Assembly: GCA_002067315.1 (NCBI GenBank)
Contig: MVRA01000187.1
Coordinates: forward strand, 577 to 64,576
Direction of reading: 5' to 3'
Length of the DNA: 64,000 nucleotides
Source: Methanocella sp. PtaU1.Bin125
GTDB taxonomy: Archaea > Halobacteriota > Methanocellia > Methanocellales > Methanocellaceae
Position 1 is the stretch's first letter. Each line of letters starts with the position of its first letter. Positions 12,361 to 54,620 of this stretch are shown in pieces. The position numbers and the translations under genes are program-made. The notes under the pieces are model-generated. The model saw only the letters and a program-made list of their open reading frames with translations. It was not told the origin of the DNA and did not search any database.

Positions 12361-12608
12361 TTCCGGTGCTTGAATGTAAATCCGAAGTATAAAACTATTG
12401 CTATGAACCGTAATCTGCAATGATCGTCAGGCGCGCCCGGTAGCAAGGAGTAGATAAATGGCCGGGGCCCTGGTCAGATAAAGGCGATGAAACGCCGGAT
12501 CAGGCTCTCGGCGCCTGCCCGCCCATGGCCACGCTTGCATGCATGACCGGCACGCAGGCGTTCCATGATAACGATACTCAATTCTTTTCCTGATGACACC
12601 GCTAACTT

Positions 12609-12618
12609 TTTATATTTA
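12609..12618 (+). promoter_or_regulatory. Putative TATA box for the (near) leaderless ATPase gene, followed by a TAGGAACA/TGTTCCTA palindrome
   Basis: TTTTATATTT lies about 25 nt upstream of the GTG start at 12639. The inverted repeat TAGGAACA...TGTTCCTA spans the start region (about 12619-12648). Confidence 0.3.
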
Positions 12619-12638
12619 GGAACATAATCCTTAGGAAT

Positions 12639-14030
12639 GTGTTCCTAAAATTCGTCGACAGGGTTTCCGAACTCGACATGCTTAATAGAGCCTATGCAGA
12701 AGACGGCTTCCATTTCATCGTGATATATGGCCGCCGGCGGGTGGGAAAGACTGAGCTCTTAAAACAATTCATCAAGGACAAAGACGCGATATATTTTCTT
12801 TGCGATAAGAGCGGTACTGCCAACAACATGGACCGGTTCAAAAGAATGGTGGCAGAGCATCTGGACGAGCCTGCCATTGAAACAGACGAGCCGGAAAAAA
12901 TTTTCTCATATATCGCTCGCAAGGCCAACCCCGGGACTGTACTAATCTTTGACGAGTTTGCATACTTGATGGAAAAAGACGATGCAATTGCCTCGATATT
13001 CCAGAGGGTGATTGACGAAGTATTAAAAAACACCAATATGATGCTGGTAGTCTGTGGCTCGAGCATGAGCATGATGCTCGACGGGGTGTTAGCCCATAAA
13101 AGCCCGCTATACGGCAGAAAGACGAATCACGCTTTAATTAATCCCATGCGGCTAACCGATATCAACGAGCTTCTCCCATCGAACACGCTGGAAGAGAATA
13201 TCCGGGCATATTCTGTTCTCGGAGGTATCCCGTATTATTTGAACAAATTCCGGGACGGCGTCGATACTATCGAAAACGTCCGGACGCAAATCCTGGATAA
13301 GAATGGGGCATTATACGAGGAGACGGATTTTCTCCTCAGGGAAGAGCTGCGAGAGCCCGACATTTACAAGACGATAGTGACGGCAGTGGCTTCCGGGACA
13401 ACGCGGGTCACCGAAATCGCGAATAAGTGCCGGATGAAACCACAGGATCTGGACCGTTATCTCAAAGTCCTGAGAAGGCTGGGCATCATAAAGCGAGAGT
13501 GCCCGATCACAGACAGGAAAAGCAAAAAAACAATTTATGTGATAGACGACAATTTTTTTGCATTCTGGTTCAGGTATTGCGAGCCCCGAAAGGCAGACCT
13601 CGAGATAGGAGACCCTACCGTCGTTATGCAGAGGCTGGAAAAAGATTTTCACGCGTTCGTCGGAAGGGGATTCGAAAAGATCGCGAGAGAGGAAATGCTC
13701 AGAAAACTATACCCCGGGGCGTATACAGATATCGGCCGATGGTGGGGGCATTACAGGGACGGTGACCAGAGGAAAGAGATCGAAATCGATATTTTAGGCC
13801 TTAACCCGGAAAAAATCGTTGCAGGATTCTTCGAGTGCAAATGGCAGGACCTTAGCGAAGCCGAAGCGAGGAAGATCCTCGATGACCTCAGGGAAAAGGC
13901 GAGATATGTCGAATGGCATAACGGGGATCGTAAAGAAACGTTTGGCATATTTGCTAGAAGCATCACAAAAAAAGAGAGTCTTCGCAGAGACGGTTTTCTC
14001 GCTTTCGACCTGAGGGATTTTCAAACATAG
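12639..14030 (+). CDS. Archaeal AAA-type ATPase (Arch_ATPase + DUF234-like C-terminal domain)
   Basis: 463-aa ORF. Walker A (GRRRVGKT), Walker B (LIFDEF). Overall architecture typical of the archaeal ATPase/DUF234 family. Confidence 0.8.
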   Translation: MFLKFVDRVSELDMLNRAYAEDGFHFIVIYGRRRVGKTELLKQFIKDKDAIYFLCDKSGTANNMDRFKRMVAEHLDEPAIETDEPEKIFSYIARKANPGTVLIFDEFAYLMEKDDAIASIFQRVIDEVLKNTNMMLVVCGSSMSMMLDGVLAHKSPLYGRKTNHALINPMRLTDINELLPSNTLEENIRAYSVLGGIPYYLNKFRDGVDTIENVRTQILDKNGALYEETDFLLREELREPDIYKTIVTAVASGTTRVTEIANKCRMKPQDLDRYLKVLRRLGIIKRECPITDRKSKKTIYVIDDNFFAFWFRYCEPRKADLEIGDPTVVMQRLEKDFHAFVGRGFEKIAREEMLRKLYPGAYTDIGRWWGHYRDGDQRKEIEIDILGLNPEKIVAGFFECKWQDLSEAEARKILDDLREKARYVEWHNGDRKETFGIFARSITKKESLRRDGFLAFDLRDFQT

Positions 14031-14034
14031 GAAA

Positions 14035-14091
14035 ATGATAAGCGATCGCGCGCATGATAAGCGATCGCGCGCATGATAATCGATCGCGCGC
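14035..14091. repeat. 19-bp tandem repeat x3 (ATGATAAGCGATCGCGCGC)
   Basis: Units at 14035-14053, 14054-14072 and 14073-14091 (one substitution). Each contains the palindrome GCGATCGC. Confidence 0.9.
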
Positions 14092-14131
14092 TCACGGGTG
14101 GCCTTGGGCAGGCAATCGTCGAGATTTTTGT

Positions 14132-14243
14132 GCGCGCGACAGGAGTCGCATTGCCTTTACAATAATTCTGCAGTAAACCTTGTCTGGTCAATTCGACTAC
14201 TGTCACGCTCGCTAGGGGCGCCGTGTAGCCAGGAGCGCCAAGG
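14132..14243. repeat. CCTTGGCGC-family palindromic intergenic repeat (left arm truncated)
   Basis: GCGCGCGACAGGAGTCGCATTGCC ... GTCACGCTCGCTAGGGGCGCCGTGTAGCCAGGAGCGCCAAGG. The right arm matches 11391-11432. Confidence 0.8.
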
Positions 14244-14403
14244 ATTTTTAAAATAAAATACTAATGAATTGCTATAAATTGGCCGGATAAAAAATTAAAA
14301 TATAGGCAACATCCGCATCGTTCTTTTTGTCTTCGGACCCTTCGTGTCTTTGTGGATCAGTCATAACTTTTATGTAGTAGTAATGCCTTTGTACAGGAAT
14401 GTT

Positions 14404-14504
14404 GGGCCCGTAGCTTAGCCAGGTCGGAACTGCTCAAACAAAAAGCAGCGACAAGCGCTCGGCTGATAACCGAGAGGCCCTGCGTTCAAATCGCAGCGGG
14501 CCCA
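14404..14504 (+). tRNA. tRNA-Ile (anticodon GAU) with a ~25-nt insertion (intron) in the D-arm
   Basis: Acceptor GGGCCCG/CGGGCCC. Anticodon arm CTCGG-CTGATAA-CCGAG. T arm CTGCG-TTCAAAT-CGCAG. Discriminator A. The D stem GCTT...AAGC is interrupted by a self-complementary insert (GTCG GAA CTGCT CAAACAAAA AGCAG CGAC). Total length 101 nt. Confidence 0.8.
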
Positions 14505-14514
14505 TCATACTTCT
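14501..14514. repeat. Left copy of 14-bp direct repeat CCCATCATACTTCT (att-like, overlaps the tRNA-Ile 3' end)
   Basis: An identical 14-mer recurs at 18416-18429. The AT-rich island lies between the two copies. Confidence 0.7.
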
Positions 14515-14581
14515 GGGGATATAGTTAACATCCCTGATTTTGCACTTTTCTCACAAGCTTGAAAACAAGTAATTTCAAATA

Positions 14582-15043
14582 TTATAATCCAAGCAGTTGT
14601 TTCTTTTTTGCTTCGAACTCTTCTTGTGTTACAATGCCAGCATCTTTTAATTCCGCTAATTTTTTAAGTTCGTCAAGAGCACTTATTTTATTATTGCTAC
14701 TTTGGTCATTAGAAGTCATTAATTCTTCAACTTTTGCTTTTAATGCAATGAAGTTAGCTGTATCTTGTACATTAAACGTAACTGTATTTTCATCTTTATT
14801 TGCTGCAAAAACATTACCTTTTGATTCTTGACTACCCATAATAACGAATTGTATGTATCCGACGGTTAATCCTGGTTGTTTTACTTGTATCCCAGTGATA
14901 CTTTTAATTTGGATCTCTTTCTCTCCTTTCGTGAATCCTTGAGTCATTTTTGCGATAATACCTTTTCGCATTATTTTAATTTTATTTTGATATAATTCGA
15001 TTTGTCCATTATATCCATTGACTGTCATTAAAACATCGCTCAT
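14582..15043 (-). CDS. PH-like (bPH/YokE-like) domain protein with C-terminal SHOCT domain
   Basis: 153-aa ORF in AT-rich DNA. The N-terminal G.I.L....I.I.RKG ... I.I..I.G.Q...PG...GYIQF pattern is typical of bacterial PH-like domains. The C-terminal ALDELKKLAELKDAGIVTQEEFEAKKKQLL is a textbook SHOCT motif. Confidence 0.75.
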   Translation of the reverse strand: MSDVLMTVNGYNGQIELYQNKIKIMRKGIIAKMTQGFTKGEKEIQIKSITGIQVKQPGLTVGYIQFVIMGSQESKGNVFAANKDENTVTFNVQDTANFIALKAKVEELMTSNDQSSNNKISALDELKKLAELKDAGIVTQEEFEAKKKQLLGL

Positions 15044-15192
15044 AGCCCAATCCCTAACGTTATACTATAAATCGAACTAAAAATAAAATTTTCTAAAAAA
15101 CTAACTTGATAGTTGTATCGTAGTCATTACCGATATGATTATATTATCAAGCGTTTATTCAAATAATATTTACTAAATATATAGGTGGTTTA

Positions 15193-16194
15193 ATGGATAA
15201 AGATAGTTTAGTAATTCCAATATACTTAGATACCAATATTTTAATGGATTTGCTGGCCTCAATAGAAGACGGTTTTAGCATGGTAGAAACTGTAAAGAAA
15301 CAATCTGCCAATAGTAGTAAAACAGAATTTTCTGGTAATGGAAATATTGGTACTGGATTAGCATTATTTGATTTATTAGATATAATTAAAATTGATCTAA
15401 AAGGAACTGCATCAAAGGCAGCACATCAAAAGACTGAAGAAGAACGGCAGGCTGAACGATATCATACGGCTGGATCACTTCTTAATAAATTACGAAGATT
15501 AATTTCTGATGAAAAAATAATTTTACAAATTAATAATGAAGAAACGTGGAACGCTGCCAACGTATCTGATTTTATTGAGACAAGTGGTCGATTTGTCCCT
15601 AATCCATTATATGATTCATTAATTACTATGAAAAAAATTATAGAATTTATTACGACTTCCACCGATATGGAATCAAAACAAAAAGAGCTCACTCCAATAT
15701 ATGATGATTTAATTAAGCGTTCAAAGACTAATACCCCTTCAAAAAAATTAAGTCAGGAGGAAGTAGAAAAGCTAAAGTCTATTACTCAAGAACTTGAGAC
15801 GATAAAAAATTTAAAATTCATTGATACATTATTGAATGGTTTTATTACAGATTTAGAGCGCTCCGGAAAACAAACGTATGTAGTAGAGCTTGATGGCCTT
15901 ACAGGGTTTAAAGGAATAATAACATTACATAACCAGTTTAACAAAGATAGTGTAGGTTTTGAACTCCCATATGGGAATTTTAAACTATTGGGTAAGGTTG
16001 TTAGAAAAGTTAACGAAGGTGAATCATATAACCTTCTGAGAGGCTCTGCGCTATCTGGTATTGATGATAGTATTTTAGGTCAATTGCTAGGGGGTTTTTC
16101 AAAAATAAGGGAAGGTGGTATTAATATTCCAGAATTAACCACCAAAGTTGATTCTCCTGCAATCCAGATTATACCAATAGCCATATTTGTTTGA
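15193..16194 (+). CDS. Hypothetical protein, 333 aa, no family recognised (island cargo)
   Basis: Long uninterrupted ORF in ~30% GC DNA, where random ORFs of this length are very unlikely. Divergently oriented to the SHOCT gene across a 149-bp AT-rich spacer. Confidence 0.7.
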   Translation: MDKDSLVIPIYLDTNILMDLLASIEDGFSMVETVKKQSANSSKTEFSGNGNIGTGLALFDLLDIIKIDLKGTASKAAHQKTEEERQAERYHTAGSLLNKLRRLISDEKIILQINNEETWNAANVSDFIETSGRFVPNPLYDSLITMKKIIEFITTSTDMESKQKELTPIYDDLIKRSKTNTPSKKLSQEEVEKLKSITQELETIKNLKFIDTLLNGFITDLERSGKQTYVVELDGLTGFKGIITLHNQFNKDSVGFELPYGNFKLLGKVVRKVNEGESYNLLRGSALSGIDDSILGQLLGGFSKIREGGINIPELTTKVDSPAIQIIPIAIFV

Positions 16195-16239
16195 AATTTA
16201 TTTTTACATACCTCTATTAATTTAAAATAATAAGGTAAA

Positions 16240-17187
16240 TTATTCAAAATAGCTATCCAACGTTCTCATACTTGAATCGGTAGTTACAGAGATATCAAAT
16301 CCTGTCATTTTTTCGATTATTGATTTTAGGTGATCGATACCTTTGGCATATCCTGCGTTTTCTTTCCTAGTTGTATATATAAGGTCATAATAGAAACCAG
16401 ACCCTGAAGATATTTTAATTACCTTCAGCGTTTTCACATTTTTGTACTGTTTTAATTTATTAATGTAGATTTCTTTGTAGCAATCAAGCCTTTTCGTTTG
16501 AGGTACTGACAAACACTTTTTATAACTCTCGTCACTAAAAAATTGAGGTAGATACTTTTCCCACGAGGTTTTTCGATTAATTCCAAACGAGTTAAAGTTG
16601 AAAAGCATGTCAAAATGCGGGTATCGCATAGATAGCAGCTTGTCCATCGTGCTCCAATGTATTTCTGTTGAAAATGGGTCAACAAATAATAAAAAGTGAG
16701 CTTCATCAAGGTCTCTTAGCTCGTTAATTAAACTATCTATACTCTCATTACAGTCTGAAGAATATACTTTACACGTTGAGGTCAATTTACCTTTTTCTTT
16801 TAATAATTGTAATCGCTTTGTAAGTAGCTCATGGCCATCGTTCTCAAAGAAGTAACAACGGTCAAACGGTGTTCTATCAAATGTAGACATTAAAACTGGA
16901 GACCCCAGTAAGTGCTGTTTTTTTCCACCATAGTCCTCGAATGTGTCTAAACCAGTTCCAGAGAACAAGTCTACATAACACATATTTTTATATCCGTTTT
17001 TCTTAATTATTGGGGCATATGTAAAATAGGCGTAACTAAACAAACAAGTTAATTTTAAGAAACTCCAAGGCTGTGAAGTCGTTCCTATTGAATCTAATTT
17101 AATAATGTCTATTAACTCTTCATTCTGCAGAAACTTTTGATGTTTTTCAATGGTTTCCCTTTCACTCATCTTCTTACCCAATACCAC
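16240..17187 (-). CDS. tcmP: TcmP-like protein (three-Cys-motif partner protein; methyltransferase-fold-like)
   Basis: 315-aa ORF. Block pattern W..LK......Y....Y..I... YVDLFSGTG ... GSPVL ... FFEND ... D.N..I ... LLFVDPF...I.W.T...LL ... D.L.NF...GI.R matches my recollection of the TcmP family (TIGR04474). Lies 13 nt downstream of a CxxxCxxC radical SAM gene. Alternative ATG start at 17169. Confidence 0.65.
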   Translation of the reverse strand: MVLGKKMSERETIEKHQKFLQNEELIDIIKLDSIGTTSQPWSFLKLTCLFSYAYFTYAPIIKKNGYKNMCYVDLFSGTGLDTFEDYGGKKQHLLGSPVLMSTFDRTPFDRCYFFENDGHELLTKRLQLLKEKGKLTSTCKVYSSDCNESIDSLINELRDLDEAHFLLFVDPFSTEIHWSTMDKLLSMRYPHFDMLFNFNSFGINRKTSWEKYLPQFFSDESYKKCLSVPQTKRLDCYKEIYINKLKQYKNVKTLKVIKISSGSGFYYDLIYTTRKENAGYAKGIDHLKSIIEKMTGFDISVTTDSSMRTLDSYFE

Positions 17188-17200
17188 GCCCCCTTAACAG

Positions 17201-18214
17201 TTAAAAGGTGCAATTACATTCAATTTTTTTATAATTCAATTTTAATCTACTCCAAACACCAAGTGTTTCTTTACACAGTGCTATTTTAGAAAATTTATGA
17301 TTATCATTTAGATAACTAATCAAGTAATTATACATGTTATAACGGGTCTCGTCATCGATTTTACGCCCCCAATTCGAACTCACTGAAAGATAGTCAACCC
17401 AGGACTTATCTTTCGAATTATTAATAGTTGATTGGAGCCCCCTTAATGAACCAATTGTTATTCGGTCAGGTACGAAACTTGAAAAGATATCATCTACAAG
17501 CCTAGAATAATGCTCTTTCCACTTCTCGATTGGAACCATAGGGTCGATACGTACCCTTGTCTGGTATCCGGCATCATAGACCTTTTTCGCAGCTTTGATA
17601 CGGTCTTTAATAGTAGGAGCCTTATGCTCCCATTTTTTTGATACAATATCAGCATTTAGGCTAAAGCCCATTACTATTCTGTCCGGTCTTTTAAGATCAA
17701 CGATGTTTTTAACAAGGGTCGATTTTGTTAGGAATAATACTCTATACTTGCCTTGAGGATCATAATCGTCGAGCACTCTTACTATAAATCTTGAGAACGG
17801 TTTGTTGCTACCTTCGCTTAGTAATGCATCAGATAATTCCCCTGCATTCAAAAGCTCATGCTCAGAAGAATTTTCAGCAATAAATCGCTTGATATGGGCT
17901 TCTATAGTTTTATAATCTTTAAATTTTGGGCTTCCATTCTTCCACTCTGGATGAAATCTATATGTGCCTTGCAGGAAACACCATGCACAATCAAATTTGC
18001 ATCCATTAGCCCATTTTAATTCTATAAAGTGCGGACAAACAACATCAGATTCATTTTTTGGTACTGGCGTTTTATTAAATAACGCGATGATGGTACCATC
18101 TAATATTTTATTAATCCTCATCTCAGTTGAACCATTGAGTGTAGGATAAGTTTTATTTGACAAAAGATTCTCCCCGCAATTTTCGATTAAACCGAATTCG
18201 GTTAATGTTGACAT
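17201..18214 (-). CDS. Radical SAM protein, spore-photoproduct-lyase/SplB-like (CxxxCxxC)
   Basis: 337-aa ORF. Motif NGCKFDCAWCFLQG (C-x3-C-x2-C). Size and layout resemble COG1533-type 'DNA repair photolyase' radical SAM enzymes. First gene of a two-gene operon with the TcmP-like gene. Confidence 0.7.
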   Translation of the reverse strand: MSTLTEFGLIENCGENLLSNKTYPTLNGSTEMRINKILDGTIIALFNKTPVPKNESDVVCPHFIELKWANGCKFDCAWCFLQGTYRFHPEWKNGSPKFKDYKTIEAHIKRFIAENSSEHELLNAGELSDALLSEGSNKPFSRFIVRVLDDYDPQGKYRVLFLTKSTLVKNIVDLKRPDRIVMGFSLNADIVSKKWEHKAPTIKDRIKAAKKVYDAGYQTRVRIDPMVPIEKWKEHYSRLVDDIFSSFVPDRITIGSLRGLQSTINNSKDKSWVDYLSVSSNWGRKIDDETRYNMYNYLISYLNDNHKFSKIALCKETLGVWSRLKLNYKKIECNCTF

Positions 18215-18415
18215 TATCTCTCTTGTCCTTTATTAATCCTTTCAATTAATTGCGATTAAGTATTAACTATTAATTAATACTTATAAATTTGTTCGTGTAT
18301 AAATTATTGTAGAATAAGCATACTGAAAATAATAAAATGTTTAAATGGTTGATATTATGAGCCATAGGTTACGTATCTACTGCAAAAAAAATTGGATGGA
18401 TTCTTCTCATATGAC

Positions 18416-18429
18416 CCCATCATACTTCT
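18416..18429. repeat. Right copy of 14-bp direct repeat CCCATCATACTTCT
   Basis: Identical to 14501-14514. The composition change back towards higher GC begins shortly after it. Confidence 0.7.
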
Positions 18430-18468
18430 CATGCTTTTATTAAACACTGCAGTCTATTCTGTATAAAA

Positions 18469-19530
18469 GGGACTGTTGCAAAATTAGGTAGCAAGTATAT
18501 TGGCATCTGAGCCGTCATCGTTTTTATGACTAGTAAAAACGGATGTGTTGGCTGGCAGATGCCGGTTTATTGTTTTGATTGTCAATGTAAAATACTTTCT
18601 GACCCTGTCATCGAGGTGCTGGAGTCGGTGGACTGGCGCCAGTTCTCGTTCCTAGAACGTTACAAGGGCAGGGGCAGGCGTCGTGTTCATAACCGGATCG
18701 GTTTGTTGCGGGCTCTTTTATACATGAAGCTCGCGGGGATTCCCAGCGTCCACGAGCTATTACGTGTGTTGGCGCGTGATCCGTATAAAATGAAGATTCT
18801 TGGCCTTGAACGTCTGCCCAGTGATAGCGTGTTCAGCAGATTCAAACGAGAACTGGGAAAGAGCATAGACCGGCTAGTATCATTGATAGCTGGCAAGCTC
18901 CATGAACTGGATCCGGACATGTTTGTCAAGCTGGGTGCCGACAGTACGAAGCTCGAGGCGTGCAAGAAAGATAGACAGTCCGGTTGGGGCTTTGACCATA
19001 TCGACCGGCGTTTCTATAAGGGATACAAGGTCCACTTGTTGTATGATACAAGGCTGCTGGTGCCCGTTTGTTTCGCGGTGACCAGTGCTAGTGTGCATGA
19101 TAACCTGGTGCTTCGCAGACTGGTAGGAAAGCTAGGAGCGGGGATATTGAAAGCAGCCGGACTCTTCCTTGATCGTGCTTACGATAGTCGGGCGAACGTC
19201 GAGGATTTCGCCCGTGCCGGAGTAACAGTGATCAACAGGAAGAATAAGCGAAATGCGAAGAATGTTAAGGGAAAATATCGTTTACAGGACTATTGCCAGG
19301 TCCACGGGAACAGGCTGAACCATTTATATAAAACCAGGAACGATTGCGAAGTGACAAACAGCCTTTTAAAAGAACGTCTCGGCCTTCAAAAGAAAAAGAC
19401 GAAAGGCATTATCAGAAACCGGGTGAAAGCCGGATTGAGCATACTGGCCAGACAAATCCAAGTACTACACCAGCTTTTACAAGAAGCCGACCCTCGGACG
19501 ACCATCATGAACTAATTATGCAACAGCCCC
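18469..19530 (+). mobile_element. Insertion sequence, IS4/IS5-type (DDE transposase), with 7-bp flanking direct repeat
   Basis: Imperfect terminal inverted repeats GGGACTGTTGCAAAATTAG (left) and CTAATTATGCAACAGCCCC (right). TATAAAA occurs directly outside both ends (18462-18468 and 19531-19537). Single transposase ORF inside. Confidence 0.85.
18526..19515 (+). CDS. IS4/IS5-family DDE transposase
   Basis: 329-aa ORF. DDE_Tnp_1-like blocks (GADSTKLEA, YKGYKVHLLYD, LDRAYDS) and the Y-x2-R-x3-E-x6-K signature (YKTRNDCEVTNSLLK). Confidence 0.85.
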   Translation: MTSKNGCVGWQMPVYCFDCQCKILSDPVIEVLESVDWRQFSFLERYKGRGRRRVHNRIGLLRALLYMKLAGIPSVHELLRVLARDPYKMKILGLERLPSDSVFSRFKRELGKSIDRLVSLIAGKLHELDPDMFVKLGADSTKLEACKKDRQSGWGFDHIDRRFYKGYKVHLLYDTRLLVPVCFAVTSASVHDNLVLRRLVGKLGAGILKAAGLFLDRAYDSRANVEDFARAGVTVINRKNKRNAKNVKGKYRLQDYCQVHGNRLNHLYKTRNDCEVTNSLLKERLGLQKKKTKGIIRNRVKAGLSILARQIQVLHQLLQEADPRTTIMN

Positions 19531-19614
19531 TATAAAACATAAAAGTTCGTGACCTGTTTGTCGAATCTGCCGGTCGGGCCCGTAATACCTTATTATCCTG
19601 CAGCTGGGGCCCGT

Positions 19615-19911
19615 TCACTCAAGCATCGAATTCTCGATGATTTCATTCCATGTTCTGTCCTTTAAAAACCGGGCCATGTACAATGTAAAAGGTATACAGA
19701 CTAACAATGCAAGAAACGTCGAGAATCCCAAAATTATAGTTCCACCGTCGTTGTACGTTTGCTGGTCTATGATCAGTGGCGTTACCAGTGAAATTACTCC
19801 TATCACCAGATCTAAAATAAAAGCGATCACGGCTGCTAAAAGAATAGCTAACGTAAATGTACATACAAGGCCCGCAATGATAGCGAATACGTATCTTTCC
19901 CACAACTTCAT
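19615..19911 (-). CDS. Small integral membrane protein
   Basis: 98-aa ORF with three hydrophobic helices. Low-GC context. Confidence 0.5.
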   Translation of the reverse strand: MKLWERYVFAIIAGLVCTFTLAILLAAVIAFILDLVIGVISLVTPLIIDQQTYNDGGTIILGFSTFLALLVCIPFTLYMARFLKDRTWNEIIENSMLE

Positions 19912-20088
19912 ATGCTACACCGTAAATAACGTAATCGTGCTACTGATCGGCTATCGCATGTTATTAATAGTAAAATTCGCGGGAAAGAGGATTAATCTTT
20001 CCCGTAAATACCGGCCCAGGGAATGACATTTTATATTATAGCTACCGATTAATGACTAATCCGGACTCTTTTTAAGCGGAATCCCTTG

Positions 20089-20997
20089 TTAAAAGACCTC
20101 ACAGTCTATCCGATCCAGAGTATAGTATTTCTGGCCAGTCGCACTGGTACTGACAGCAATATGATAATAGTCCAGCTGCTCTTGCATCAATGTCGTCGGG
20201 TCCGGCGGCAGGCGTATCCGGAGGCCGATTTCATTCCGGCTGCTGTGGAGCAGGCCCCAGGAAAAAATGGTCATATACCTGATCTCTTCCGGCCCGCCGG
20301 GGCCATAAATCGCGTAGGTATCGATGGCGTAAACGGCATCTGATTGATCGCCGCCGGACAGGTCGGTATACTGCCATTGATTGAGCGTGGTGGAAAAACG
20401 GTTTTTAACTTTATCGGTTCGAGTATCCGGGCTGTGCATGACGGGCTTACTGGAAGAGGCCAGGACGTCTTCCTGTGCATATTTCGGCCACGTATTATCG
20501 TGCAGGCTGTCGGTAGCTGTTGATAGCATGACCGCAAAATAGTCCTCTTCTCCGTGGAGATTCATAGTGGAGAAAGAACTAACGTCTAAGCTCTCGTCGA
20601 CCCTGAGTGTAATGGTTTTCAGGCCGTTCGCCGACAGTAATCCGTAACTCGATCTCGTGGCCCCGAAGCCGGCGATTTTTATCGGTATTCTCCAACCCGT
20701 TTCGAACGGGCCCTTGAACCAGAACGCGTGGGGAGCAATAGAAACAGACATGACGTTGTAACTATCGCTTTTCAGGGGAAAGATACCGCTCGACGTCTTG
20801 ACTACTTTTGTCCAGACGAAATAGGAAGCGTTTTCGCCTGGTATATTGGACGGATAATTTACCGGCGTTGTTATTACTGTTCCCGGGTCTTCCGATTTTA
20901 GCAGGACAGTGTACAATATGAACACTAATATTACGATAGCCAGCAGGGCAATGATTTGAAACACCAGCTTTTTACTGAAAAATTTCTTAATGTCCAT
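20089..20997 (-). CDS. Membrane-anchored extracellular hypothetical protein
   Basis: 302-aa ORF. N-terminal anchor helix (LVFQIIALLAIVILVFILYTVLL). No family recognised. Confidence 0.6.
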   Translation of the reverse strand: MDIKKFFSKKLVFQIIALLAIVILVFILYTVLLKSEDPGTVITTPVNYPSNIPGENASYFVWTKVVKTSSGIFPLKSDSYNVMSVSIAPHAFWFKGPFETGWRIPIKIAGFGATRSSYGLLSANGLKTITLRVDESLDVSSFSTMNLHGEEDYFAVMLSTATDSLHDNTWPKYAQEDVLASSSKPVMHSPDTRTDKVKNRFSTTLNQWQYTDLSGGDQSDAVYAIDTYAIYGPGGPEEIRYMTIFSWGLLHSSRNEIGLRIRLPPDPTTLMQEQLDYYHIAVSTSATGQKYYTLDRIDCEVF

Positions 20998-21120
20998 ACT
21001 ATCACGAGACGCCAGCAGTCTATCGGAAATTATTACTAAATATGGGCTTCTTGAGGTAAATATTATCCTCCGGGTGATTATTGGCCGACCTTATAACTTA
21101 TATGACAATCGCAGCCACAC

Positions 21121-21230
21121 GATCGGCAGGAACGGTTAATGCATTGTGCCGATCTGCAGGAACGGTTAATGCATTGTGCCGATCTGCAGGAACGGTTAAT
21201 ACAAGTATCGATTGGCAGGAAAGCTTAATG
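21121..21230. repeat. 30-bp tandem repeat (GATCKGCAGGAACGGTTAATGCATTGTGCC) x2.7 plus a degenerate fourth core
   Basis: Units at 21121-21150, 21151-21180 and 21181-~21202. Related core GATTGGCAGGAAAGCTTAATG at ~21210-21230. Confidence 0.85.
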
Positions 21231-21428
21231 AGTGGTGTCATCATTGAGCTTATTATGTCCCGGCGCAAGGAGCCTCGCGAAAAGAAACTCCGGCGAGTGA
21301 AGAGCAAGCGTTGCTACCTTTGTTCCAGGCCCATCCCCCCGGGCGAGGAGCTCTGCGTCGGGCCGGACCTGTGGATTTGCCCTAACTGTATCGTCAGAAT
21401 GGTGAAATGGGGAGTGGCGCATGTGTAG
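21228..21428 (+). CDS. Possible small basic zinc-finger protein
   Basis: ATG at 21228 (or 21258) gives ...RRKEPREKKLRRVKSKRCYLCSRPIPPGEELCVGPDLWICPNCIV..., with CxxC...CxxC. The part of the track ORF upstream of 21228 merely translates the tandem repeat. Confidence 0.35.
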   Translation: MSGVIIELIMSRRKEPREKKLRRVKSKRCYLCSRPIPPGEELCVGPDLWICPNCIVRMVKWGVAHV

Positions 21429-54528: not shown

Positions 54529-54620
54529 TCCCGCCCCCCGAATTCGAATCGGGGACCTGTCGGTTTCCGCAGTCGTAAGGTCTACAGCCGACCGCTCTGA
54601 CCAGGCTGAGCTAGGGCGGG
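54529..54620 (-). tRNA. tRNA-Tyr (anticodon GUA) with canonical-position ~17-nt intron
   Basis: Reverse complement: CCCGCCC-TA-GCTCAGCCTGGTCAGAGC-G-GTCGG-CTGTAG[intron]A-CCGAC-AGGTC-CCCGATTCGAATTCGGG-GGGCGGG-A. Confidence 0.85.

Follow-up and report, generated by a model that had tools for sequence, protein, structure and literature searches.

Immediately downstream of a tRNA-Ile gene in the archaeon Methanocella sp. PtaU1.Bin125 lies a 3.9-kb island of very AT-rich DNA that we read as a casposon-derived element without transposition machinery of its own. The island spans positions 14515-18415 of the window, by which we mean the entire 64,000-nucleotide stretch of contig MVRA01000187.1 that was analysed, and we assign this reading a probability of about 0.68. 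Casposons are large self-synthesizing transposons that have been proposed as ancestors of the CRISPR adaptation module. The members of casposon family 2 have a recognizable signature, in which the element inserts at the 3' end of a tRNA gene and the flanking direct repeat is a target-site duplication (TSD) made by a Cas1-type transposase (PMC6977970, PMC4779613, PMC4046053). At the Methanocella island, an exact 14-bp repeat begins within the last nucleotides of the tRNA gene, and the sequence directly inside its left copy is homologous to a terminal inverted repeat (TIR) found at the same place in related loci. The island and its boundaries comprise the following features, given in window coordinates.

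14404..14504, + strand: tRNA-Ile(GAT) gene, Rfam RF00005 at 60.3 bits, with a hairpin insertion of ~30 nt in the D-loop.
14501..14514, + strand: left copy of the 14-mer CCCATCATACTTCT; its first 4 nt (CCCA) also form the end of tRNA-Ile.
14515..14545, + strand: putative left TIR GGGGATATAGTTAAC (14515-14529; 14/15 match to the consensus GGGGATATAGTTAGC) and subterminal box GATTTTGC (14536-14543).
14582..15043, - strand: gene for a 153-aa protein with a DUF4429 (bacterial PH-like) domain (PF14472, E 4.5e-11) and a SHOCT domain (PF09851, E 2.2e-10).
15193..16194, + strand: gene for a 333-aa DUF6414 protein (PF19952, E 5e-31).
16240..17187, - strand: second gene of a two-gene operon, encoding a 315-aa TcmP-family (three-Cys-motif partner) protein (TIGR04474, 90.5 bits versus a cut-off of 53).
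17201..18214, - strand: first gene of that operon, encoding a 337-aa radical S-adenosylmethionine (SAM) enzyme of the spore photoproduct lyase (SPL) family (PF20903, E 9.5e-19).
18401..18416, + strand: right end with a putative vestigial TIR (...TCTTCTCATATGACC), a partial consensus match after a 1-nt boundary shift.
18416..18429, + strand: right copy of CCCATCATACTTCT, matching the single copy CCCATCAAACTTCT in the empty site of locus L001.

A first-pass annotation of this DNA had placed an exact 14-mer at 14501-14514, overlapping the last 4 nt of tRNA-Ile, and again at 18416-18429, and both copies are indeed present. That annotation would have been undermined if the 14-mer were a common genomic word, but there are exactly two copies of CCCATCATACTTCT in the 64 kb and no others even when 2 mismatches are allowed. 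As a control for chance, 500 random 46-nt anchors were scanned for an exact repeat of at least 14 nt within 20 kb downstream, and 10 of them had one. Because this proportion is so small, and because the repeat also coincides with both boundaries in composition, a chance repeat is unlikely.

The DNA between the two copies is foreign in composition. Its G+C content, judged by eye in the first-pass annotation to be roughly one third, measures 0.325 for 14515-18415 versus 0.593 for the host backbone, and the A/T-dominated third codon positions described there correspond to a third-position G+C content of 0.21-0.34 in the four island genes versus 0.73-0.90 in host genes. Sliding-window analyses of G+C content and tetranucleotide usage, which had been proposed as a check, single out the island as the strongest tetranucleotide outlier of the contig, with the most tetranucleotide-deviant 3.9-kb intervals starting at 14001 and 15001. 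Only the recovery of composition after the second copy proves to have been partly overstated. Some recovery does occur, but the right repeat is followed by an insertion sequence (IS) with a G+C content of 0.48 and then by 1.5 kb at 0.46, and G+C content does not reach host-like levels again until about 21.2 kb. In the metagenome-assembled genome (MAG) of Methanocella sp. PtaU1.Bin125, the island proteins have identical counterparts, A4E28_02733-02735. Non-coding DNA at the two ends of the island amounts to only 67 bp and 201 bp, and 14515-18415 holds no further open reading frame (ORF) of at least 60 aa with coding potential beyond the four genes.

The isoleucine identity of the tRNA follows from the anticodon GAT in its anticodon loop (CTGATAA). 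ARAGORN misses this gene because of the hairpin of ~30 nt inserted in the D-loop (AACTGC...GCAGCGAC), which is a non-canonical position for an intron. A D-loop insertion with differing loop and stem sequences is also found in most of the Methanocellaceae loci introduced below, and it is absent from two of them (L001 and L002).

Two sets of related loci were available for comparison. Six Methanocellaceae loci (L001-L006) came from a scan of one genome per species for the neighboring NcsA protein, and six further loci (L017-L022) came from a scan of metagenomes with a TSD-TIR motif pattern in which a spacer of 3-17 nt was allowed. The tRNA-Ile gene lies 100-300 bp from NcsA in L001-L004, L006 and five NcsA-bearing metagenome contigs, and ~5 kb away in L005. 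Synteny is kept on the NcsA side of the tRNA, and the opposite side is variable. The closest relative, L001 (NcsA 90% identical), has tRNA-Ile followed by a single CCCATCAAACTTCT that is 13/14 identical to CCCATCATACTTCT, then host-like sequence, and then, ~150 bp from the tRNA, a homologue of the window ORF at 21081-21428. This is the empty site with one repeat copy that the first-pass annotation had suggested looking for. In the expected empty-site allele of the Methanocella genome itself, tRNA-Ile would be joined directly to CATGCTTTTATT, and the predicted casposase target region would comprise the last ~35 bp of tRNA-Ile plus CATCATACTTCT. Downstream of tRNA-Ile, G+C content is host-like and the TIR motif is absent in L001, L002 and L003, all three of which are empty sites. 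Since these host-like sites lack it, the motif is part of the insert. In L004, L005, L006, L017, L018 and L022, the DNA following tRNA-Ile is AT-rich as well. Homologues of the four island genes are missing from all 12 loci, whereas shared genes at this same position in relatives had been named as an outcome that would speak against horizontal acquisition.

The relatives also reveal what kind of boundary the island has. Its left TIR lies at the same offset in L017, L018, L022, L006 and L004, and the GGGGATATAGTTAGC motif starts exactly 10 nt past tRNA-Ile in about nine other Methanocellaceae loci, among them L017, L018, L019/L021, L020, L022 and L006. The distance from the end of the acceptor stem to the TIR is always filled by a 14-nt word beginning CCCATCA, as seen at eight or more other junctions, and all six metagenome matches had 14-nt spacing although the search pattern permitted 3-17 nt. 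Locus L018 displays a complete architecture of the form tRNA-CCCATCAAATTTTT-GGGGATATAGTTAGC ... 2.05 kb ... GCTAACTATATCCCC-CCCATCAAATTTTT-AAGGATATAGTTAGC, in which a perfect 15-bp inverted TIR pair is enclosed by identical 14-bp TSDs and the left end of a next element follows in tandem. Within these 2 kb lie a gene for acetoacetate decarboxylase and a small ORF, and no transposition genes. L004 contains a TIR-TSD-TIR junction resembling that of L018. Furthermore, at a distance of 0.8 kb from tRNA-Ile and the motif, L017 encodes a truncated Cas1 (PF01867, E 1.9e-25), and the best match of this fragment in the PDB is the casposase of Methanosarcina mazei (6OPM, 84.6 bits, versus 31.5 bits for CRISPR Cas1). 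No right TIR is present in L017. We therefore read 14515-14529 as the probable left TIR of a family of casposons that insert at tRNA-Ile in Methanocellaceae.

The right end of the island is far less clear. The junction there is a run of C residues, and if the boundary is shifted by 1 nt, a choice made post hoc, the last 8 nt (ATATGACC) match the TIR terminus at 6/8 positions and the last 15 nt match the TIR at 8/15. The background frequencies of such matches in the island are 0.3% per position for 6/8 and 1.5% for 8/15. This resemblance to a TIR terminus is suggestive. A direct local alignment of the two island ends scores no better than shuffled sequences, and no better right TIR or second TSD is found downstream as far as 24 kb.

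Some of the related loci are more elaborate. L004 (4000-9900) and L006 (400-9900) hold arrays in which each partial tRNA-Ile copy, of up to 93 nt, precedes a TSD-like word, a left TIR and AT-rich cargo, in this order, and in L004 a 208-aa ORF is present in duplicate. These units of tRNA fragment, TSD, TIR and cargo suggest an interplay with integrase-type elements or unequal recombination. In L017 (5084-5210) and L022 (2136-2290), a second TIR-like motif lies ~100 bp after the first and is preceded by a CCCA-type word of 13-14 nt; the second motif of L022 belongs to the right-end type but runs forward. These second motifs have the appearance of solo ends accompanied by nested or inverted insertions.

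The resemblance to known casposons is extensive. The casposon TSDs of M. mazei are 14 bp long, with four invariant 5' positions and an AT-rich 3' end, and because the repeat at the Methanocella island has this geometry, with CCCA replacing CGCA, it is read as a casposon-type duplication. Thus, the 14-mer is most likely a TSD rather than the core of an attB/attP pair. Like the family-2 casposons of M. mazei (at tRNA-Leu/IR1 sites) and of Aciduliprofundum boonei (at tRNA-Pro), the island abuts the 3' terminus of its tRNA gene, which stays undamaged, the first 4 nt of its TSD are the last 4 of the tRNA, the 3' stretch of the TSD is AT-rich, and a TIR lies directly inside the TSD. Tandem insertions sharing a TSD, solo-TIR remnants and both orientations have been described for casposons (PMC4779613), and tandem arrays sharing a TSD, solo or decayed ends and both orientations occur in the loci related to ours. 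A casposase fragment whose nearest counterpart is the M. mazei enzyme sits at the same site in L017. The differences from family 2 are the tRNA-Ile target with CCCA rather than CGCA, the Methanocellaceae host, and a short TIR of ~15 bp with another sequence.

Casposons range in size from roughly 8 to 20 kb, whereas the island measures 3.9 kb, has no casposase, PolB, HNH or helix-turn-helix (HTH) genes, retains at best a vestigial right TIR, and is neither self-synthesizing nor autonomous. Having no casposase, no polymerase and an uncertain right TIR, it is not a casposon proper, yet it carries the casposon insertion signature. Because Cas1 and PolB are missing and only a vestigial right TIR is present, it would be a non-autonomous or decayed casposon derivative. 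It also resembles the artificial mini-casposons built in the laboratory, TIR-flanked markers that likewise place cargo between casposon ends without transposition genes and that purified or expressed casposase integrates in trans at a tRNA-proximal target with formation of a TSD. Casposases integrate such TIR-flanked constructs in vitro (PMC5137440, PMC10359463) and accept even TIR-less DNA, including a whole gene (PMC7786333).

From these considerations we infer that a casposase acted on this particular element. In the proposed mechanism, a Cas1-family transposase from a related autonomous casposon would recognize the 3' end of tRNA-Ile in trans, with the 3' part of the tRNA gene serving as its target 'leader'. 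The enzyme would cut with a stagger of 14 bp that begins 4 nt short of the tRNA gene's end and would join both ends of the incoming DNA, after which gap repair would yield the two identical copies of CCCATCATACTTCT. The tRNA would stay whole, as its last 4 nt would be regenerated by the duplication. At the right end, either an end with little TIR character might have been accepted, or a right TIR might have decayed since. The readings that remain are mobilization in trans of a non-autonomous element whose left end is good and whose right end is poor, a capture event in which a promiscuous casposase took up the DNA, and decay in situ of a complete casposon. Mobilization in trans and capture are both mechanistically plausible because casposases integrate mini-casposons and TIR-less DNA in vitro (PMC7786333).

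Several observations weigh against a casposon-derived origin. Neither the island nor the rest of the 64-kb window nor L001-L006 yielded a Cas1 or PolB gene in family searches or in tblastn with the L017 fragment. No autonomous casposon of this family was recovered, and action in trans is assumed. The right TIR is weak, its significance hinges on the post hoc shift of 1 nt, and the subterminal box GGACTGTTTTC that marks the right end in L018, L004 and L022 is absent from the window element. The loci bearing the motif were found partly by means of the motif itself, and the frequency of this arrangement among them is accordingly a biased one. The long partial tRNA copies that bound the units in L004 and L006 are not explained by simple casposition. 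In addition, the window derives from a MAG, so that its junctions rest on assembly, and a defence role for any of the four genes would be drawn from gene neighborhoods only. Searches of viral contigs were also negative: the TSD-plus-TIR pattern gave 2 chance matches inside genes, the 15-mer TIR gave 28 chance matches, none with a TSD or subterminal boxes, and the L017 casposase fragment gave no match.

A different origin for the island had been proposed in the first-pass annotation, which took it for a horizontally acquired element that had used the tRNA 3' end as attB. The foreign origin and the site-specific insertion at the 3' end of tRNA-Ile stand, but the attB and integrase mechanism probably does not. 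Integration by a tyrosine recombinase would make the island what is left of an integrative plasmid or provirus after the later loss of its integrase and replication genes, with the 14-mer as the attP/attB crossover core. An AT-rich island beside a tRNA, direct repeats, defence-type cargo, an empty site and possible mobilization in trans are indeed shared with tyrosine-integrase elements such as the pNOB8/SSV-type elements, bacterial islands and cis-mobilizable elements. The 3' ends of tRNA genes are classical integrase targets, and in M. mazei integrase-type elements and casposons use the same tRNA (PMC4779613). The long partial tRNA-Ile copies in L004 and L006 are typical of attL/attR pairs, and the closest homologue of the radical SAM-TcmP pair (66% identity) resides on a 9.6-kb plasmid-like contig (L008) with a XerA-like integrase and a RepB-primase/AAA_25 gene. 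However, the repeat covers only 4 nt of the tRNA, versus the tens of nucleotides usual in tRNA att sites, and the sequence ahead of its right copy has no similarity to the tRNA. What lies just inside the left repeat is, in relatives, an inverted-repeat terminus accompanied by a transposon-type duplication. The absence of an integrase from the island, already remarked upon in the first-pass annotation, is upheld by family searches of the four ORFs, although it is beside the point if the missing enzyme is a casposase; neither an integrase nor a split integrase fragment is present, the short non-coding ends leave no room for one, and neither the window nor the related loci hold a homologue of the L008 integrase. 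We consider this explanation quite improbable.

Somewhat easier to entertain, though still unlikely, is the idea that the 3.9 kb never moved as a unit. A complete casposon with Cas1, PolB and HNH genes might have inserted at tRNA-Ile, and its core genes and most of its right TIR might later have been deleted or replaced by AT-rich cassettes. Casposon remnants and solo-TIRs have been documented at M. mazei target sites (PMC4779613), L017 presents a truncated casposase and no right TIR at the tRNA-Ile site, and the weak right TIR of the island would fit such a history. This scenario must nevertheless accommodate TSD copies that are 14/14 identical next to a right TIR that would have lost 7/15 positions, and a deletion that would need to have stopped within 1-8 bp of the TSD. 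Moreover, the four genes are intact and no Cas1 or PolB pseudogene fragment was detected, and L018 demonstrates that a small element bounded by TIRs and TSDs, without core genes, exists in the same family. The possibility that the AT-rich segment was misjoined during metagenome assembly or binning, with a merely coincidental 14-bp repeat, is suggested by the MAG source of the contig and the extreme difference in G+C content. It strikes us as highly improbable, as the left junction matches base for base the tRNA-TSD-TIR order of independent assemblies, AT-rich DNA follows tRNA-Ile in the six other loci named above, a repeat as short as 14 bp would not confuse a k-mer assembler, and the 14-mer has no other copies in the 64 kb. 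Two further candidates were ruled out: a composite transposon mediated by IS copies, given that a single IS copy is present and lies outside the repeat, and an SSV-type split integrase, given that the ends have no coding space.

The cargo of this putative casposon derivative is of the defence or modification kind that had been anticipated for such an island, as judged by protein families and gene neighborhoods, and domain searches agree that none of the four ORFs is a housekeeping gene. In the operon, the radical SAM enzyme has its CX3CX2C motif at C73/C77/C80, where GCKFDCAWC (residues 72-80) aligns with the SPL motif, and its best sequence match in the PDB is spore photoproduct lyase (4FHG, E 1e-7). 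It falls below the SplB equivalog level (TIGR04070, 75.6 bits versus a cut-off of 400), and the hydrogen-donor cysteine of SPL (C140/C141) is absent, there being no Cys between residues 81 and 310. No PADLOC model matches the enzyme, and neither does DUF5131. A total of 1474 homologues were detected. In 5/5 contexts a TcmP-family gene adjoins that for the radical SAM enzyme; TIGR04474 confirms four of these five partners, and the fifth is recognized by size and position. The partners of the radical SAM homologues score 84-219 bits against TIGR04474. The contexts include a plasmid-like contig that also encodes an integrase and a RepB primase, the vicinity of DUF1156/DUF499 genes, the vicinity of a Schlafen/AlbA_2-domain gene, and a position among housekeeping genes.

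The TcmP protein of the island matches PADLOC model PDC-M41A (E 1e-16), and TcmP-like proteins are components of the PDC-M41 and PDC-M30 defence candidates. Its sequence has no match in the PDB and only a fold search is informative: the AlphaFold2 (AF2) model, with a predicted local distance difference test (pLDDT) score of 89.6, has the N6-adenine (m6A) methyltransferase RlmJ as its top fold matches. The motifs YVDLFsGsG and FVDPF are invariant. DUF5131 proteins are the usual partners of TcmP. In common with the TcmP pair, PDC-M41 and PDC-M30, the operon joins a TcmP methyltransferase-fold protein to an enzyme of the radical SAM superfamily in a compact, mobile two-gene module; unlike the TcmP/DUF5131 (Gp37/Gp68) pair, its partner is a PF20903 SPL protein and its TcmP is of a short (~315 aa) subtype. 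In the RadicalSAM.org classification, SPL and DUF5131 fall in the sibling subgroups Megacluster-5-3 and 5-2 (PMC9477430). On the 9.6-kb Logan contig L008 noted above, the pair is AT-rich relative to its carrier and includes a 367-aa TcmP (PDC-M30A, 203 bits). Judging from the gene neighborhoods, the most likely role of the radical SAM-TcmP pair would be nucleic-acid modification or repair in defence or counter-defence.

The DUF6414 protein invites comparison with Dodola, since a survey assigned DUF6414 to one of the two Dodola proteins (10.1101/2024.10.26.620412), which consist of DolA (DUF6414) and the ClpB-like DolB, and PADLOC names its corresponding model DolA. Whereas the window protein belongs firmly to the Pfam family, it has no match to the PADLOC DolA model at E <= 1. 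No DolB gene lies beside it (its neighbors encode the DUF4429-SHOCT and TcmP proteins) or in the five homologue contexts. There, single DUF6414 genes occur beside a ThsB-type TIR (Toll/interleukin-1 receptor) gene, beside a ParE toxin, within a type I restriction-modification operon, beside Pycsar, or among housekeeping genes. The protein has no sequence match in the PDB, and its AF2 model (pLDDT 77) has no significant fold match in the PDB or BFVD. These varied defence neighborhoods make DUF6414 a candidate single-gene defence or abortive-infection module. The adjoining DUF4429-SHOCT protein matches PHROG 2700 and 888, both functionally uncharacterised families, and a distant blastn search of a plasmid collection matched only a 122-bp stretch of its gene, to Bacillus plasmids. 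A search for the same four genes together elsewhere, as had been recommended, saw this linkage in no homologue context, as DUF6414 and the radical SAM-TcmP pair travel separately. The element carries two independent AT-rich modules, one formed by DUF6414 with the adjoining DUF4429-SHOCT gene and the other by the radical SAM-TcmP pair, which elsewhere behave as self-contained mobile cassettes within neighborhoods of the defence type.

The surroundings of the island have a history of their own. The nearest feature on the right lies outside the element.

18454..19545, + strand: IS5/IS4-like IS with 34-nt imperfect inverted repeats (DDE_Tnp_1, E 1.8e-18).

This IS starts 24 bp beyond the right repeat and is flanked by CAGT and TTCG with no visible target duplication, which hints at an IS-associated rearrangement. 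The DNA that follows (19546-21080, G+C 0.46) encodes a 98-aa membrane protein and a 302-aa protein without a family match; it is absent from L001 and might represent an earlier insertion into this hot spot. Just beyond it, four tandem 30-bp units (21120-21238) lie upstream of, or overlap, the start annotated for a small ORF that encodes a zinc ribbon. A second, separate insertion, 12421-14355, flanks tRNA-Ile on its opposite side. A gene with ATPase_2 and DUF234 domains (12639-14030, G+C 0.48; PADLOC PDC-S27, 179 bits) is located there, and only in this genome does such a gene lie between NcsA and tRNA-Ile. It is followed directly by three tandem copies of a 19-bp unit (14035-14091; ATGATAAGCGATCGCGCGC), and an ATPase of the same type is found near a radical SAM-TcmP pair in another locus, L010. 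A second intron-bearing tRNA (54529-54620, - strand; Rfam 49.9 bits, with a 4-nt 'anticodon' in ARAGORN) adjoins tRNA-Asp. A scan for bacterial promoters and terminators, which is unsuited to an archaeon, found no enrichment.

The casposon literature searched, comprising open-access papers and bioRxiv, covers full elements, solo-TIRs and laboratory mini-casposons, and yielded no description of natural gene carriers that lack Cas1 and PolB and are bounded by casposon ends and the corresponding TSD. Annotators who encounter a 14-bp repeat sharing 4 nt with a tRNA gene should look for Cas1 rather than for an integrase. The cargo also draws attention to a widespread, uncharacterised two-gene module that pairs an SPL-family radical SAM enzyme with a TcmP methyltransferase-fold protein. 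Much more tentatively, and with the odds against it, perhaps the 3' end of tRNA-Ile in Methanocellaceae functions as a cassette array fed by casposases. Small elements lacking transposition genes, and even DNA with a single good TIR, would be caught in trans and lined up in the order leader (tRNA), repeat (14-bp TSD), insert, repeat, insert. Such a site would represent a natural intermediate between a casposon and a CRISPR array, as well as an undescribed route by which archaea acquire defence genes. If the casposon-derived reading of the island is true, casposases would move foreign cargo in trans into one fixed site resembling a leader and assemble tandem arrays there, separated by TSDs. The casposon-to-CRISPR scenario would then become testable in a natural system, and methanogens would have an additional mechanism for the spread of defence islands.

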